Part shown: one piece after another, positions 4,889-11,770 of the stretch
How the letters are laid out: each line of letters opens with the position of its first letter
Position numbering within the stretch: position 1 is the first letter of the stretch
From: a virus
Virus genome (UHGV): UHGV-0394577
DNA length: 11,770 nt
Direction: 5' to 3' (one strand)
The notes under the pieces: generated by a model
What the model was told of the DNA's origin: nothing
The model's database searches: none
What the model saw: the letters and a program-made list of their open reading frames with translations, nothing else
Position numbers and translations under genes: made by a program

Positions 4889-5108
4889 TACGTACGGATA
4901 TCGAGATAAAGACGGTTTTTTTACCCCACTGGGGAAAAGGTACGCACCTGAATCATCATTATCGTGATCAAGGGTATGTAAAGCCCACCAGCCTGATCAA
5001 CAGTTAACCGGAAAAAAAGCCAGGTATGGGGGGGTAGTGGTTAGCCACGAACAACGAACAAGCTGGACACCGCGCCCACTCTCACGCAGAGAAAAAATTA
5101 CCGTTTCG

Positions 5109-5644: not shown

Positions 5645-5679
5645 TAAAACCCTGTTTTTTCGTGTGGAATCATAGACAT

Positions 5680-6921
5680 ATGGCGAGAAAAACAACCCAA
5701 TTAACCACAGTGCAGATCAAAGCAGCCAGGCCAGCGGAAAAGGAGTACACCCTACAGGACGGCGGGGGGCTTTTTCTCCTGGTCAAACCGTCCGGATCAA
5801 AACTCTGGAGATTTTCCTACTACCGACCATCGGACAAAAAAAGAATATTGCTGAGTTTTGGATCGCTTGAAGATGTTTCCCTGGCTGATGCCAGAAAACG
5901 CCGTAGCGAGTACAGGACGTTAATCAGTGCCGGAACTGACCCGCAGGACCACGAGAGGCAAAAAAGAGAGACAGAGGCCCGAAGACAAGGGAACACGTTC
6001 GAAAATGTGGCGGCGGCATGGTACCAGGTGAAAATCAGCCAGAATCTGGCCCCCAACACGATTAAAGACATCTGGAGATCGCTGGAAAAATATGTATTCC
6101 CGTTCATCGGTAACACGCCAATAGACACCCTGACCGCTCGCAGGTTTGTTGAGGTGCTTACCCCCATCAAGGAACGTGGCAACCTGGAAACACTCAAACG
6201 GGTTTTACAGCGAGTCAATGAAGTAATGGATTACGCCGCCAACAGTGGGCTGATCGATACCAATCCGGCTATGAATGTGCGTAAGGCGTTCCCCTCCCCT
6301 GTAAAAAAACATATGCCAACAATCCGCCCCGAGCAGTTGCCGGAGCTTATGCAGGCTTTATCAGTATCGGCAACAGAACGGCAGACCAGATTACTGATCG
6401 AATGGCAGTTACTGACCGTAACCCGTCCCGCCGAAGCGTCATCAACTCGGTGGGATGAAATCGACATGGACGCGAAGCGATGGACGATACCCGCCGGACG
6501 CATGAAGATGAGGCGTGATCACGTTATCCCGCTTTGTAGTCAGGCTATGGCGGTACTGGAGGCTATGAAACCAATCAGCCATCACCGCGATTACGTTTTC
6601 CCGAGCCTGAAAGACCCACGGCAGCCTATGAACAGCCAGACCGCAAACGCAGCATTGCGGCGGATGGGGTTTGGCGGGGTTCTGGTTTCTCACGGTATGC
6701 GCGCCATATTCAGCACCGCAGCGAACGAAGAAGGATTTGAGCCGGACGTAATAGAGGCCGCACTAGCCCACGTGGACACCAACGAAGTGAGACGGGCATA
6801 CAACCGGAGCAACTACATAGAAAAACGCATCGTGCTTATGCGCTGGTGGGGCGAATTTGTCGAGGCGGCGGCAACGGGCGTGACCCTTGCCAGTGGTAAA
6901 AGGGGTATTCGGGCCGTGTAG
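5680..6921 (+). CDS. int: tyrosine recombinase / integrase, P4-family
   Basis: Track ORF 5662..6921 begins at GTG; ATG at 5680 gives the N-terminus MARKTTQLTTVQIKAARPAEKEYTLQDGGGLFLLVKPSGSKLWRFSYY typical of P4-like integrases; C-terminal catalytic region with R...HVIPL...HGMR..F...A and a Y in RRAYNRSNY. Confidence 0.92.
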   Translation: MARKTTQLTTVQIKAARPAEKEYTLQDGGGLFLLVKPSGSKLWRFSYYRPSDKKRILLSFGSLEDVSLADARKRRSEYRTLISAGTDPQDHERQKRETEARRQGNTFENVAAAWYQVKISQNLAPNTIKDIWRSLEKYVFPFIGNTPIDTLTARRFVEVLTPIKERGNLETLKRVLQRVNEVMDYAANSGLIDTNPAMNVRKAFPSPVKKHMPTIRPEQLPELMQALSVSATERQTRLLIEWQLLTVTRPAEASSTRWDEIDMDAKRWTIPAGRMKMRRDHVIPLCSQAMAVLEAMKPISHHRDYVFPSLKDPRQPMNSQTANAALRRMGFGGVLVSHGMRAIFSTAANEEGFEPDVIEAALAHVDTNEVRRAYNRSNYIEKRIVLMRWWGEFVEAAATGVTLASGKRGIRAV

Positions 6922-7417: not shown

Positions 7418-7624
7418 ATGGAAGCAATCAAAAAAGTCATCTTTCGCCAGGAAGTAAAAAAACTTATCCACATCAAGGCAGACAGCACGCTGCAAAGCAT
7501 GATCAACGCCGGAGAATTCCCGCAGGGTTTTCGCGTTGGTTTACGCCGTCGAGGATGGTATGAGGATGACGTAATCGCCTGGATGAAAGAACGCGAACAG
7601 GAAGCACGCGGAACGGCTGCTTAA
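7418..7624 (+). CDS. alpA: AlpA/Vis-family phage regulatory protein (excisionase-like HTH)
   Basis: 68 aa; STLQSMINAGEFPQGFRVGLRRRGWYEDDVIAWMKER fits the AlpA-family pattern (FP, G.R..GW.E.EV..W); sits downstream of int as in P4-like and PICI elements. Confidence 0.75.
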   Translation: MEAIKKVIFRQEVKKLIHIKADSTLQSMINAGEFPQGFRVGLRRRGWYEDDVIAWMKEREQEARGTAA

Positions 7625-7656
7625 CGGGTATCACAGATATGACGAACACGAAAAAA

Positions 7657-7680
7657 GCGGCCCCGATATGGAGCCGCCTT
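7657..7680 (-). terminator. possible terminator for minus-strand transcripts (5-bp GC stem, then T6 on the minus strand)
   Basis: AAAAAAGCGGC...GCCGCC on the plus strand; on the minus strand the stem is followed by TTTTTT. Weak stem with a long loop. Confidence 0.3.
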
Positions 7681-8000
7681 TCTGAACAATTAACCCGCTG
7701 CGCATTATGTATCAACAAACATAAGCCAGGGCATGATAGCCGCTATCAGGCTGGTGGGCAATGCTATCAGTCTGTTTCAGTGCGTTTCCATAACTGCGAA
7801 GCTCTCTCCTTTGATGAGTATTCTTTAAGGTACTTCTCAAGGGCAAAAGAACACGGCGCGAATCGTTCTGATTCATGCTCTTTCTTTCTGCGTCGTCTTT
7901 TTCGTGCAGGTGATGTTTTTTTGGTTGATTCTTCGTTGGTCATTGTGTGCGCCTGTAAAGCAATGCGCCGGAGTTCCTCACACCACGGCGCTGATAGTTT

Positions 8001-8192
8001 TTATCCTTTGGGTTCTATGCCGCGCCGCTTTAGTTCAGTGCGCCCCAACTCTTTAAGCCAGTTGGCTAGGCTTATGCCGTCGCTCTGTGCTTCTTTGTCG
8101 AATTGCTCTTTTAGCTCTGGAGAAATTCGCATTCTGAATTGTGGGGATTGCCCGTCCCCTTTAGGGCTTTTATCGCGTTTGATTGTTGACAA
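8001..8192 (-). CDS. ribbon-helix-helix (RHH) DNA-binding protein, putative regulator
   Basis: C-terminal FRMRISPELKEQFDKEAQSDGISLANWLKELGR fits the RHH pattern (beta strand then two helices, as in MobC/CopG-type proteins). Proposed start is TTG 8192 with AGGTGA SD; alternatives are ATG 8132 or the track's TTG 8273. Confidence 0.4.
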   Translation of the reverse strand: MSTIKRDKSPKGDGQSPQFRMRISPELKEQFDKEAQSDGISLANWLKELGRTELKRRGIEPKG

Positions 8193-8235
8193 GTGGTCAC
8201 CTATTGAATTAGCCTTTCTATTGTTAGGTGACCAC
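8193..8235. promoter_or_regulatory. operator-like inverted repeat GTGGTCACCT-n23-AGGTGACCAC
   Basis: Perfect 10-bp inverted repeat; each half contains the palindromic GGTCACC/GGTGACC core; located at the 5' end of the RHH gene and upstream of the Ash/Icd operon. Confidence 0.4.
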
Positions 8236-8326
8236 CTTAACACAAGAGCACTTAAAAAAGCAAAGCCCCGCAAGTGTCATTACCACTCGCAGGGCTTCTA
8301 ACCAACAACGTAAACTAGGAGCCGTT

Positions 8327-8524
8327 ATGGTTGCCGTAAATCATATAACACACCTTGTACACACACAAACGGCCTTTGTGTGGCGTTTTCTGGCCCTGAG
8401 TGCCGGAGAATCTCAAATCATCCACGTAACCGCCTGGACGGAACGCGAAGCGCGTAGCCGTTGCCCGTCAGGTTGTGTTGCTGTATTTGCCGCTCGTATT
8501 CGTCAGGGGTCACATCATGCGTAA
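8327..8524 (+). CDS. Ash/Icd-like small protein (P4-type), short paralog
   Basis: 65 aa from ATG 8327 (SD TAGGAG), internal to track ORF 8228..8524. TAFVWRFLALS...VTAWTEREARSRCP...VFAARIRQG is paralogous to the C-terminus of the next ORF and resembles Ash/Icd-like proteins as recalled from memory. Confidence 0.5.
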   Translation: MVAVNHITHLVHTQTAFVWRFLALSAGESQIIHVTAWTEREARSRCPSGCVAVFAARIRQGSHHA

Positions 8525-8984
8525 AAACCGCTTGCAAAAAATTATAACGGGGCTGTATGCTTCCCCCGTCGCCCACATGGCGACCGGGTTTGACAGCCTG
8601 AATACTGTAGCGGACAGCCGCTTACATTCCGATATGCGGTTTTTTTGTGTCCGTAAACCTACCCATACCCGCATTATGGCGGGGCGTAACGGGGGAGCCT
8701 TTGCGCTCGCTGGTTCCTACAGTACCAGTCTGTCAACCCTGTTACGTCTCGCCACCATGTTTGACAGCGTAGTAGCGAGACTCCTTAAAATTACTGTAGG
8801 AGCCTTTCACATGGCTGTATCCGCACGCCCTTACTTTGTCTGGCGCTTTATGCAGTGCCACCACAGCAGCATTGATGTATTCACCGTTACCGCAGCCACT
8901 GAACGCGAAGCACGCGCCCAGCTGCCGCACGCACATCTGATTTTTGTCGCCCGTATTCGTCAGGGGAAAACCTATGCACAATAA
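8517..8984 (+). CDS. Ash-family-like protein, long paralog
   Basis: 155 aa from ATG 8517 (SD AGGGGT); start overlaps the previous stop (ATGCGTAA); C-terminus YFVWRFMQC...VTAATEREARAQLP...IFVARIRQG is homologous to the upstream ORF. Confidence 0.5.
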   Translation: MRKNRLQKIITGLYASPVAHMATGFDSLNTVADSRLHSDMRFFCVRKPTHTRIMAGRNGGAFALAGSYSTSLSTLLRLATMFDSVVARLLKITVGAFHMAVSARPYFVWRFMQCHHSSIDVFTVTAATEREARAQLPHAHLIFVARIRQGKTYAQ

Positions 8985-9726: not shown

Positions 9727-11477
9727 AACTTGCACCGAACGTAAAACAGCAGTCACGCGGCATAAAACACAAAGGAACAGAAGTCATTATTTTTGCGGGT
9801 AGTGATGCCTGGTCACACGCTAAACAATGGCAGGAACATGACGCGCGTATGGCCGGAGATAATGAGCCTCCTGTGTGGCTTGGGGATCAGCAGTTATCCG
9901 AACTGGATAAGCTGCAAATTGTGCCGGAAGGCCGAAAATCAGTACGCATATTCAGGGCCGGACATCTTGAACCTGTAATGATAAAGGCGATTGGTCAGAA
10001 GCTGGCGGCGGCAGGTGTACAGGATGCAAATTTTTACCCTGAGGGAATGCACGTTCAGGAGGTGGAGAACTGGCGCGAATATCTGGCCCGTGAGCGCCAG
10101 AATCTTTCTGAAGGTCTGTTCGTTGAGCTTCCGGTAAAGCAAAAGGCGCAACTTTCGCAGATGGCGGACAGTGAACGCGCTCAGCTGCTTTCCGATCGCT
10201 TTGATGGCGTTTGCGTACATCCTGAAAGTGAAATCGTTCACGTATGGCGCGGCGGGGTATGGTGTCCGGTCAGCACAATGGAACTTAGCCGCGAAATGGT
10301 GGCGATCTATTCAGAGCACAGGGCCACTTTCAGCAAGCGCGTAATCAATAACGCCGTTGAAGCGTTAAAAGTTATTGCCGAACCAATGGGCGAGCCGTCC
10401 GGCGATTTGTTGCCGTTCGCCAATGGTGCGCTTGACCTGAAAACGGGGGAATTTTCCCCGCACACGCCGGAGAACTGGATCACCACGCACAACGGTATTG
10501 AGTACACGCCACCAGCACCAGGGGAGAACATCCGCGATAACGCGCCAAATTTTCATAAATGGCTTGAGCACGCAGCCGGAAAAGACCCGCGCAAGATGAT
10601 GCGTATATGTGCCGCGCTGTACATGATTATGGCGAACCGGTACGACTGGCAGATGTTTATTGAGGCCACCGGAGACGGCGGAAGCGGTAAAAGTACATTC
10701 ACGCATATAGCCAGCCTTCTGGCAGGGAAACAGAACACGGTAAGCGCTGAAATGACCTCACTTGATGATGCTGGTGGACGTGCGCAGGTTGTCGGGAGTC
10801 GTCTTATCGTCCTGGCTGACCAGCCGAAATATACAGGCGAAGGAACGGGCATCAAGAAAATCACGGGCGGCGACCCCGTGGAAATTAACCCGAAATATGA
10901 AAAGCGTTTCACGGCGGTAATCAGGGCGGTGGTGCTGACGACCAACAACAACCCGATGATATTCACCGAACGGGCCGGAGGCGTGGCACGTCGTCGGGTT
11001 ATTTTTCGCTTTGACAATATCGTTAGCGAGGCAGAAAAGGACAAGGATTTGCCGGAGAAGGTCGCGGCTGAAATCCCTGTGATTATCCGCCGATTACTGG
11101 CGAACTTTGCCGACCCTGAAAAGGCCCGGGCTTTACTCCTGGAACAGCGCGACGGTGATGAAGCACTGGCAATAAAGCAACAGACGGATCCGGTTATTGA
11201 GTTTTGCCAGTTCCTGAATTTTCTGGAGGAAGCGCGCGGCCTGATGATGGGTGGCGGTGGCGATTCAGTGAAGTACACGACCAGGAACAGCCTTTACCGC
11301 GTCTATCTGGCGTTTATGGCGTACGCAGGCAGGAGCAAACCGCTAAACGTAAATGACTTTGGCAAGGCTATGAAGCCCGCTGCAAAAGTTTACGGACATG
11401 AATATATTACGCGGAAAGTTAAGGGAGTAACGCAGACTAACGCAATAACAACAGACGATTGTGACGCGTTTTTATAA
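9723..11477 (+). CDS. P4-alpha-like primase/helicase replication protein (SF3 helicase domain)
   Basis: 584 aa; Walker A GDGGSGKST, Walker B-like LIVLAD, later VVLTTNN motif; architecture typical of P4-family/PICI primase-helicase; iteron origin immediately downstream. Confidence 0.88.
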   Translation: MKLAPNVKQQSRGIKHKGTEVIIFAGSDAWSHAKQWQEHDARMAGDNEPPVWLGDQQLSELDKLQIVPEGRKSVRIFRAGHLEPVMIKAIGQKLAAAGVQDANFYPEGMHVQEVENWREYLARERQNLSEGLFVELPVKQKAQLSQMADSERAQLLSDRFDGVCVHPESEIVHVWRGGVWCPVSTMELSREMVAIYSEHRATFSKRVINNAVEALKVIAEPMGEPSGDLLPFANGALDLKTGEFSPHTPENWITTHNGIEYTPPAPGENIRDNAPNFHKWLEHAAGKDPRKMMRICAALYMIMANRYDWQMFIEATGDGGSGKSTFTHIASLLAGKQNTVSAEMTSLDDAGGRAQVVGSRLIVLADQPKYTGEGTGIKKITGGDPVEINPKYEKRFTAVIRAVVLTTNNNPMIFTERAGGVARRRVIFRFDNIVSEAEKDKDLPEKVAAEIPVIIRRLLANFADPEKARALLLEQRDGDEALAIKQQTDPVIEFCQFLNFLEEARGLMMGGGGDSVKYTTRNSLYRVYLAFMAYAGRSKPLNVNDFGKAMKPAAKVYGHEYITRKVKGVTQTNAITTDDCDAFL

Positions 11478-11491
11478 TTTTTTGCAATGGC

Positions 11492-11718
11492 TGTCTACCC
11501 TGTCTACCTGAGTAAAGGAAAATACATTTAATTCAGTATATTAAGTTAGGTAGATAGCCTTTTTTCCCTTGTCTACCTGCTGTCTACCCTCTCTACCTGA
11601 TTTTACCTGAACCAGAAAGGGAGGTAGATACGGGTAGATAGTGAATAAAAGCACTCTACCCCGCTGAAAGCCGCGCCATTACTGGAATGGGGGCCAGCAA
11701 GGTAGATAAGGTAGACAA
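11492..11718. repeat. replication origin iterons (TGTCTACC / GGTAGATA, about 11 copies in both orientations)
   Basis: Direct copies at 11492, 11501, 11571, 11581 and 11590 (degenerate TCTCTACC); inverted copies at 11549, 11623, 11633, 11701 and 11711; 9-10 bp phasing within clusters; similar to the P4 ori/crr type I iteron TGTTCACC as recalled from memory. Confidence 0.7.
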
Positions 11719-11770
11719 GGGGAGGCACAACTCAAAACTTTTTAAACGAGGGGGTAAAAATAAATATGCA

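Follow-up and report, generated by a model that had tools for sequence, protein, structure and literature searches.

The 11,770-nt stretch of DNA analyzed here (the window; UHGV virus genome UHGV-0394577) is a phage-inducible chromosomal island (PICI) of Escherichia coli, of the EcCICFT073 type. Between its alpA-like gene and the first, Icd-like, early gene lies a compact leftward unit that occupies the minus strand from 8192 to 7651: a gene for a 63-residue ribbon-helix-helix (RHH) protein (8001-8192), a 57-nt spacer (7944-8000), a gene for a 58-residue protein with a basic N terminus (ORF58; 7767-7943), and an intrinsic terminator (7651-7681). Two predicted operators, O2 (8191-8202) and O1 (8226-8237), stand at its upstream end. 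The whole unit is antisense to a 220-codon plus-strand open reading frame (ORF; 7639-8301) which begins 14 nt past the alpA stop codon and ends 25 nt before the icd-like ATG. In anatomy the unit resembles an immunity repressor that comes in many specificities, and the frame that covers it is a candidate counterpart of the bridging ORF eta of P4.

Does the minus strand carry two genes or one gene of about 150 codons, broken by a stop? The preliminary description of the window, made from its letters, had allowed for both, and the layout on which it based the question stands: the RHH frame ends with TAA (8003-8001), the same frame runs on for 57 nt to an ATG at 7943, and the 58-residue ORF that opens there, with its basic N terminus (...SPARKRRRRKKEHESERF), ends with TGA (7767-7769). 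Orthologous elements, however, speak for two small genes and against an interrupted one. ORF58 homologues were retrieved at 54 IMG/VR loci, of which 39 are distinct in sequence ("relatives" below); in all 39 the small upstream gene stops 57 nt (60 nt once) before the ORF58 ATG, and it does so with TAA or TAG, never with a sense codon. Most spacers hold an extra in-frame stop, TAG at -39 or TAA at -30; that of the window has no further one. Beyond E. coli the RHH gene is found without ORF58: in Dickeya and Xenorhabdus no partner gene follows, and in Providencia (L058/L059, 4196-4348) the next ORF encodes an unrelated, hydrophobic, lipoprotein-like product of 50 residues (MKAILWILALVLASLFFIRSC...). 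Neither a sense codon at the stop position of orthologues nor a consistently stop-free frame behind it, the marks of programmed readthrough or of an interrupted gene, is seen. Because the stop is always kept, most spacers add stops of their own and RHH occurs as a stand-alone protein, both the readthrough and the pseudogene ideas are rejected: by this comparison RHH and ORF58 are two separate genes, and their shared frame and 57-nt spacing are not a chance feature of the window, yet reflect no fusion.

The gene in front of ORF58 is a mosaic. At least a dozen different small RHH-like proteins are found there, some belonging to the YlcI/YnfO family (DUF3950) and some Arc-like as in the window, while the spacer, ORF58 and the region 3' of ORF58 are kept throughout; a divergent ORF58 homologue in another island keeps the 57-nt gap as well. 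Mean column identity of the spacer is 87%. It contains a GC-rich hairpin (7991-7965, minus strand) with GAGGAAC in the loop, and a weak Shine-Dalgarno (SD) sequence, CAGG, precedes ORF58.

The RHH protein is longer than first described. A start at ATG 8132, giving 43 residues, is misplaced: this codon falls in the middle of the DNA-reading strand (PQFRMRISPEL versus PQFNLRWPREV in Arc). The true start is TTG 8192, from which the frame encodes 63 residues up to its TAA (MSTIKRDKSPKGDGQSPQFRMRISPELKEQFDKEAQSDGISLANWLKELGRTELKRRGIEPKG), and the 20 residues thereby added at the N terminus (MSTIKRDKSPKGDGQSPQF) show conservation at the protein level in many genera. The same TTG is used in Dickeya and Xenorhabdus (CACTTGTCAA), with AGGTGA as the SD sequence. 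Homologues of 63-64 residues from Providencia, Xenorhabdus, Erwinia, Proteus, Morganella, Dickeya, Pantoea, Edwardsiella and other genera align over their full length. By family profile, the best match among solved structures is P22 Arc (E 0.0035; residues 11-57 to Arc 2-48), and PHROG 228, "Arc-like repressor", matches with an E value of 5e-7. The AlphaFold2 (AF2) model (predicted local distance difference test score, pLDDT, 81; core above 90) has the strand and two helices of a MetJ/Arc fold within about 45 residues: an extended stretch (residues 17-24) precedes helices at 25-37 and 42-56. The top Foldseek matches to this model are all Arc, followed by NikA, CopG, AmrZ, ParG and RHH antitoxins. 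Family models in Pfam stay below their cutoffs: Arc (PF03869) scores 12.4 bits against 20.4, HicB scores 19.5-20.4 against 21 in a match that spans the RHH part only, and PF13132 (YlcI/YnfO, DUF3950) does not match the RHH protein of the window. PF13132 does recognize an allele that relatives have at this locus (28.3 bits versus 25), and the Prokaryotic Genome Annotation Pipeline (PGAP) calls such alleles YlcI/YnfO. The name "HicB family antitoxin", which NCBI gives to homologues, is unjustified: all 63 residues are taken up by the RHH fold, a HicA-binding domain is lacking, and no HicA match lies adjacent.

Selection acts on the minus strand here. Between genera, synonymous change in the minus frame is saturated while the nonsynonymous rate (dN) is 0.07-0.19, with a ratio to the synonymous rate (dN/dS) of at most 0.09, compared with 0.12-0.24 for the overlapping plus frame. 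The minus-frame ratio is lower in every pair with an estimable dS; in the other three pairs the sense dS is saturated and sense nonsynonymous changes are still fewer. The lower minus-frame dN/dS therefore points to selection on the RHH protein. From profiles, model and substitution pattern together, the protein is an Arc-like RHH regulator with predicted DNA binding.

What would it bind? Where an operator-like palindrome had been noticed upstream of the gene, there are two 12-bp near-palindromes 35 bp apart. O1 (AGGTGGTCACCT; 8226-8237) lies over the -10/+1 region of the proposed RHH promoter and the +1 region of the proposed early promoter; O2 (AGGTGACCACTT; 8191-8202) lies between the -35 and -10 elements of the latter. 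With the RHH start at TTG 8192, the start codon and the AGGTGA sequence fall inside O2, which holds the SD sequence and the first bases of the start, and the upstream palindrome abuts the gene. Both are predicted sites, and no other sequence in the window matches AGGTGNNCACYT exactly. A third, similar palindrome (AGGTACGCACCT; 4938-4949), one mismatch away from AGGTGNNCACYT, is found in the intergenic stretch that separates the packaging genes from int.

The case for binding of these repeats by the RHH protein is made chiefly by the way in which protein and repeat change together. In front of the 79% identical RHH genes of Dickeya and Xenorhabdus, the same O1 and O2 sites occupy the same positions, 35 bp apart, in intervening DNA that differs. 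Within E. coli islands, at least 12 other RHH alleles each have a 9-12-bp repeat of their own, among them TGTAATG/CATTACA, GGTATTCAC, TGAATCGCA, TGAAACACA, TGTGCGCACA and GTGTTGAACAC, as well as GTGTAAGACAC, GTGTCAGCC, GTGTCGGACAC and TGAATCACA; in the CFT073 island the repeat is GGTGTGGCCCAC. The DUF3950-type alleles have repeats at fixed positions, about -103, -77 and -31 from the start codon. A plus-strand TTGAC(A/G), or GTCAA on the RHH strand, is kept beside the second repeat in all alleles, and we read it as the -35 element of the early promoter. Together with the Arc matches, this covariation supports the view of RHH as a DNA-binding regulator with a cognate palindromic operator, and the idea that it may be the repressor of the satellite, voiced in the preliminary description, gains strength, since operator and allele co-vary and the operators sit on the early promoter.

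The promoters themselves are proposed from the sequence. That of the RHH gene (8234-8263, minus strand) consists of TTGCTT (8263-8258), an 18-nt gap and TAAGGT (8239-8234); in the form TTGnTT-N18-TAAGGT it also occurs in Dickeya and Xenorhabdus. The early promoter, which would serve the icd/C4/primase operon (8186-8215, plus strand), consists of TTGACA (8186-8191), an 18-nt gap and TAGCCT (8210-8215), and TTGACA-N18-TAGC(C/T)T is present in three genera. The simple divergence of the two transcription units that had been assumed does not fit this layout: as read, the promoters face each other, with start sites that share a few bases. A back-to-back arrangement appears to hold for DUF3950-type alleles, in which another operator, the third, lies at the start site of RHH.

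The unit is closed on the minus strand by a terminator, as the preliminary description had supposed. The hairpin at 7681-7651 (AAAGGCGGCTCC-ATATC-GGGGCCGCTTTTTT) has a 12-bp stem, the loop AUAUC and a U-run; because G.U pairs make the stem far stronger as minus-strand than as plus-strand RNA, it is a minus-oriented terminator, and relatives carry a different hairpin and T-run (GGCGACC...GGTCGCCTTTGTTTT) at the same place in the same orientation. Another strong and conserved hairpin with a T-run, also a minus-oriented terminator, lies just upstream of the RHH promoter (8254-8298). Its folding free energy is -27.6 kcal/mol as minus-strand RNA (z-score -6.4) and -18.3 as plus-strand RNA; compensatory changes occur in 5 of its 14 pairs, and many of its G.U pairs fit the minus orientation only. 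This hairpin (8298-8254) would end a candidate cis-antisense small RNA of about 78 nt on the minus strand (8255-8345), for which a conserved minus-strand -10 element lies inside the first Icd-like codons (TATGAT, 8345-8340, in the window; TGGTATGAT or TGGTATAAT in other alleles). The candidate RNA spans the complement of the start codon (CAT, 8329-8327) and of the SD sequence (CTCC) and would hide the first early gene's ribosome-binding site.

ORF58, the second gene of the unit, is conserved in a narrow group. Full-length homologues at the 54 loci are 52-100% identical and share the core ESERFAPCxFALExxLKE, with the invariant pattern ESERFAPCxFxLExxLK. Its dN/dS is 0.2-0.45, and the minus-frame value is lower than or equal to that of the plus frame in most pairs, a weakly informative comparison given the shared wobble positions, and less clear than that for RHH between genera. 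It matches PHROG 21027, a family of unassigned function (E 2.5e-13). The family comprises 23 clusters, all "hypothetical proteins" of E. coli or Shigella; a profile search of 1.84 billion representatives returned nine family members and one repetitive false match, and tblastn against GenBank phages gave no match, nor did the defence models of PADLOC or the families of Pfam and NCBIfam. The AF2 model (pLDDT 71) has a disordered, Arg-rich tail (residues 1-23; RKRRRRKK) and one long helix (24-57), a chemistry that suggests nucleic-acid binding. A resemblance to Nun- or N-like arginine-rich RNA-binding peptides was considered and not adopted, being a likeness with no support from an alignment. Our best guess is that ORF58 is a nucleic-acid-binding modulator or an exclusion factor. 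Since Dickeya and Xenorhabdus have no partner gene and Providencia has an unrelated one, the position after the repressor appears to be a cargo slot, and ORF58 a cargo of the E. coli lineage that is expressed with the repressor. Some genomes (P0019, P0023 and P0029) have frameshifted ORF58 variants that read into the +1 frame, and one Escherichia-type island (L067, 3001-3246 and 3928-4125) has ORF58-like genes in two copies, of which one lacks a preceding RHH gene.

If the minus strand encodes the proteins, why is the plus strand open? The 220-codon ORF had been set aside as looking non-coding, a view that the relatives do not support: the frame is free of stops even over segments that are noncoding on the minus strand, starts beside or overlapping alpA or a cargo gene, and often has a good SD sequence. 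The plus ORF shares its wobble positions with both minus genes, and an antisense frame in this phase tends to stay open over genes rich in Lys and Glu. Composition, considered as the reason for the open frame, fits the coding parts only, and relatives rule out chance. The plus ORF of the window stays open in 15% of synonymous recodings of the coding parts, in 0.75% of shuffles of the 294 nt that are noncoding on the minus strand, and in 0.1% when recoding and shuffling are combined. All E. coli relatives keep the frame open, over 220-498 codons, and so do Providencia and Dickeya. Across 13 alleles of the RHH-to-early-gene region, plus-strand stops number 2 in frame and 53 and 66 in the other two phases; the first 150 nt past ORF58 have 2 in frame and 55 and 27 out of frame; and the 13 operator blocks alone, whose median pairwise identity is 62%, have 0 in frame and 51 and 47 out of frame. 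The RHH-sense frame enjoys no comparable protection in the same stop counts.

The ends of the frame point the same way. In relatives the plus ORF starts 8 to 14 nt past the alpA stop codon or overlaps the end of the preceding cargo gene by 8 nt, and several of the starts have a strong SD sequence (GGAGGAAAACAGCCATG, AAGGGGAGCATATG and AAGGTGAGTTATG are strong start contexts); in others the first start is at +57, +144 or -44 nt relative to the upstream stop. In Providencia (L058/L059) an antisense frame of 258-272 codons covers the RHH gene, the cargo gene and the promoter region, and begins on the last base of the stop codon of the upstream AntA gene. In most relatives the ORF continues in frame into the Icd-like gene. 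The features expected of an eta-like ORF are present in part: the start is beside the alpA/vis homologue or the last gene of that module, and the open frame extends over the immunity and promoter region up to the early genes, Xenorhabdus excepted. Pfam detects no Phage_ASH or Bro-network domain in the 220-residue product; in some relatives the first early gene is Phage_ASH, and the plus ORF of CFT073 holds a Bro-N-like fragment. The product has no match among Pfam, NCBIfam and PHROG families; its amino acids are not conserved, and ORFs that accompany different RHH alleles have unrelated translations. We conclude from these patterns that the plus frame is probably selected to stay translatable, not for a particular protein.

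The surroundings are those of the island type. Pfam matches identify int, alpA, primase, lambda E-like capsid, D-like decoration and Nu1-like genes, as in other islands of the type, which measure about 10-15 kb; the window also encodes a single-stranded DNA-binding protein (SSB), DUF4222 and a D5-type primase. The gene order equals that of the CFT073 island and of an island beside tRNA-Pro in strain JNEC-KY203 (L001). On the plus strand, int (5662-6921) and a small ORF are followed by the alpA-like gene (7418-7624), the RHH-ORF58 stretch, the Icd-like gene (ATG at 8327), the a1b1 targets (8555-8604), a C4 RNA (8672-8759), a second Icd-like domain and the primase operon. The alpA-like gene, convergent with the RHH-ORF58 unit, has Phage_AlpA and HTH_17 matches below the Pfam thresholds and is named "helix-turn-helix transcriptional regulator" by PGAP in relatives. 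The first early gene (8327-8524) has a good SD sequence, AGGAG, is annotated by PGAP in L001, and matches PHROG 29966 (E 3e-32). On its 3' side lie the plus-strand elements of P1/P4-type RNA immunity found with Rfam: c4-a1b1 (8555-8604; 46.8 bits), an isrK-like element (8568-8646; 34.1 bits, under its gathering score) and the C4 antisense RNA (71.7 bits versus a gathering score of 45). An annotated "Icd-like" ORF (8475-8984) crosses these elements. A plus-strand, terminator-like hairpin with a T-run (8362-8392) lies within the first Icd-like ORF, about 150 nt past the proposed early start site, and is kept where relatives have the same Icd-like allele; AlpA-type antitermination might act on it, or it may be plain coding sequence. 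By its ends (1-700 and 11477-11770), the window resembles a complete, circularly permuted island: the primase gene ends at 11477, the int and att side is in the middle, and the window opens with what comes after the primase in chromosomal copies (a small ORF, SSB and capsid). Chi (GCTGGTGG) occurs 12 times in the 11.77 kb, 7 times on the plus and 5 times on the minus strand, compared with 0.28 expected from shuffling, and no shuffle reached 12; the copy at 7750-7757 (+), just past the ORF58 stop, is kept in nearly all inspected relatives, with a mismatch in L008.

Each part of this locus has a parallel elsewhere. P22 Arc, with its immI region (the arc-ant operon, Mnt and the antisense RNA sar), is the best match in sequence and fold, and like Arc the RHH protein is small and comes first in its operon, with predicted palindromic operators over opposed promoters; the candidate short antisense RNA over the neighboring ribosome-binding site is presumably a parallel to P22 sar. 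Identity to Arc is 25-28%, however, and the window protein has a 17-residue N-terminal arm; the downstream gene encodes a 58-residue basic protein instead of the Ant antirepressor; and the host element is a satellite in which the operon is wholly antisense inside another open frame. Phages P2 and 186 have face-to-face lytic/lysogenic promoter switches. In the layout read from the sequence, the RHH and early start sites are likewise opposed, with a few bases in common, and transcription converging from the two would give interference; the repressor family differs from those of P2 and 186, and the promoters of DUF3950-type alleles are back to back. In P4, translation of eta, coupled to that of the alpA homologue vis, prevents termination (Forti et al., 1999, via PMC10111431). 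According to that summary, P4 has the same succession of an alpA homologue, a linked ORF over the immunity region, an internal early promoter, a C4/CI-type RNA and a primase gene; unlike the window, P4 as summarized there is credited with neither a protein repressor nor leftward genes inside eta (PMC10111431).

The same unit is present in EcCICFT073, the prototype Gram-negative PICI. Between its alpA and Icd-like genes, two leftward genes, C_RS30120 (YlcI/YnfO family, 59 residues) and C_RS30800 ("hypothetical", 57 residues; an ORF58 homologue), are separated by a 57-nt spacer and preceded by operator repeats (GGTGTGGCCCAC), and a 428-codon plus-strand ORF covers the unit; the differences are the DUF3950-type RHH allele, the three operators and the back-to-back promoters. 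A reporter fused to ORF3 of this island, or placed after alpA, depended on AlpA (PMC6092414). The same study describes Gram-negative islands as transcribed unidirectionally rightward and as having no clear global repressor (PMC6092414), and the difference from the Stl-controlled Gram-positive islands is termed "a mystery" in the literature on these islands. Stl (Rpr) of the Staphylococcus aureus pathogenicity islands (SaPIs) and related PICIs is an island-encoded repressor that lies opposite to the replication operon and shuts it off (PMC6092414), which is the role proposed here for RHH; the two proteins are unrelated, and induction is thought to come via helper-activated alpA rather than by a phage anti-repressor that binds the repressor. 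A literature search found no functional link of PICIs to RHH proteins, YlcI/YnfO or DUF3950, and no functional study of C_RS30120 or C_RS30800; the EcCIMP1 paper concerns other regulators.

How might the parts work together? The model we favor, with a probability of roughly 60%, is a two-gene leftward operon for an Arc-like repressor inside an eta-like, stop-free plus-strand ORF. The operon would run from 8192 to 7651, encode the 63-residue repressor and then the 58-residue basic protein, a conserved cargo on the repressor transcript, and terminate before alpA. The RHH protein would bind O1 and O2; because O1 lies on its own -10/+1 region and on the early +1 region, and O2 between the early -35 and -10 elements, binding would both autoregulate the repressor and keep the operon of the icd-like gene, C4 RNA and primase shut, with the C4 RNA as a backup. 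Repression of the early operon we infer from this anatomy and from the covariation of operators and alleles. By analogy with P4 vis-eta, helper-induced, AlpA-dependent rightward transcription would then be translated across the plus ORF as it passes head-on through the repressor operon into the early genes, and such transcription would bypass and silence the repressor. A broader proposal is tentative and, in our judgment, somewhat more likely wrong than right: that Gram-negative PICIs in general carry a master repressor after all, a leftward, allele-variable RHH protein with at least 12 operator specificities that is encoded antisense inside a translated bridging ORF, and that AlpA-driven induction runs head-on against it.

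Several observations weigh against the favored model. The whole case is built from anatomy and signals of selection; both promoters are our own reading of the sequence, and a consensus promoter scan of the window flagged neither, because each -10 element matches at 3 of 6 positions only and thus stays below the threshold of the scan. That the plus frame is translated we infer solely from the missing stops and from start contexts in relatives; in the window the ORF has no recognizable SD sequence and ends 25 nt before the icd-like ATG, in another frame, and in Xenorhabdus the open plus frame covers the RHH gene only. In the 3' untranslated region of ORF58 the plus frame has no codon periodicity (37/35/29 variable sites), so its product is not a conserved protein there. 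The link to published data takes the 428-codon ORF of CFT073 to be the region of the published "ORF3", an assignment of ours. As for the repressor operon, the early operon also carries C4-type RNA immunity, so control may be layered, with RHH as one layer among several; ORF58 has no match to a family with an assigned function, and a family as narrow as its own cannot have a central role in every island of the kind. The stem of the spacer hairpin is 89% paired across relatives with zero compensatory changes, and the hairpin is unproven as a conserved RNA structure.

Other readings of the unit must be set against these points. A type II toxin-antitoxin pair, with RHH as the antitoxin and ORF58 as a small toxin, would account for the order of the genes, for the HicB match just under threshold (20.4 versus 21 bits) and for the "HicB family antitoxin" names in NCBI, yet 63 residues leave no room for a HicA-binding domain, and ORF58, a disordered tail and one helix by prediction, matches no toxin family, HicA included, in Pfam, NCBIfam, PHROG or PADLOC. 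Toxins and antitoxins should also be paired always and co-evolve; here, unrelated RHH types with different C termini precede the same ORF58, and RHH occurs without ORF58 or with a different partner. With the genes 57 nt apart instead of overlapping, and the operators placed also on the promoter of the neighboring operon, we regard such a pair as distinctly improbable. Unlikely too, if by a shade less so, is that the RHH protein binds DNA for another job, such as that of an accessory factor in packaging or at cos. YlcI/YnfO genes adjoin the small terminase gene nohA/nohD in lambdoid prophages, YlcI/YnfO (DUF3950) proteins, of unassigned function, are among the alleles at the RHH locus, the window has a Nu1-like gene, and the one-mismatch site at 4938-4949 is in the intergenic region on the att/cos side. 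All exact operator copies, however, lie within the 110-170-bp region between RHH and the early gene, on -35, -10 and +1 elements, with a geometry kept across at least 12 specificities.

The two remaining readings would do away with one or both of the small genes. Were the plus ORF the sole real gene, encoding a Bro-network or Icd-like protein, with the minus ORFs as its shadows, one could understand why PGAP calls it "hypothetical" or "Icd-like" in many genomes and why its frame is so clearly kept open. The RHH protein, however, has a specific fold and family and the lower dN/dS, the ratio for ORF58 is lower or equal on the minus strand, and the minus genes have fixed starts and stops, a promoter, operators and terminators, whereas the plus translation is unrelated between alleles and matches no family; in CFT073, PGAP annotates the minus genes. 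We consider this reading very improbable. Hardest of all to sustain is a single gene of about 150 codons broken by the TAA, be it a pseudogene or a programmed-readthrough fusion of RHH and a basic peptide: the common frame and the stop-free spacer of the window are what it would predict, but against it stand the stop conserved in 39 of 39 relatives and the second stop in most of their spacers, an RHH family that is complete at 57-64 residues in many genera without ORF58, and the conserved ATG that ORF58 has of its own.

The unit is widespread. The spacer-ORF58 segment is present in 1602 of 5426 complete E. coli genomes (about 30%), in up to six places per genome, and EcCICFT073, the prototype, carries the RHH-ORF58 unit, as does an EcCIEDL933-like island. 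What PGAP annotates varies: it may be the plus frame (as "hypothetical", "Icd-like" or an "Icd-like" pseudogene marked as incomplete), the minus genes, or nothing at all. Examples of this inconsistency in RefSeq are L001 7840-8508 and L057 3340-3933; the minus genes are annotated in CFT073 and a few others. Users of these annotations should be aware that the pipeline often calls the antisense frame and misses both small genes.

An Arc-type repressor module joined to a putative P4-eta-type translated leader is an unusual combination, the more so as it is fully antisense and occurs in islands thought to be repressor-less. The stop-free frame over 13 unrelated operator blocks is a clear example from nature in which selection acts on translatability and not on a protein sequence. 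If RHH represses the early promoter, this would explain how the islands stay silent, would define immunity groups among co-resident satellites, and would provide a concrete target for how helper phages and AlpA switch an island on. The locus would then be a convergent, doubly coding switch in which one strand encodes proteins and the other must merely stay translatable.

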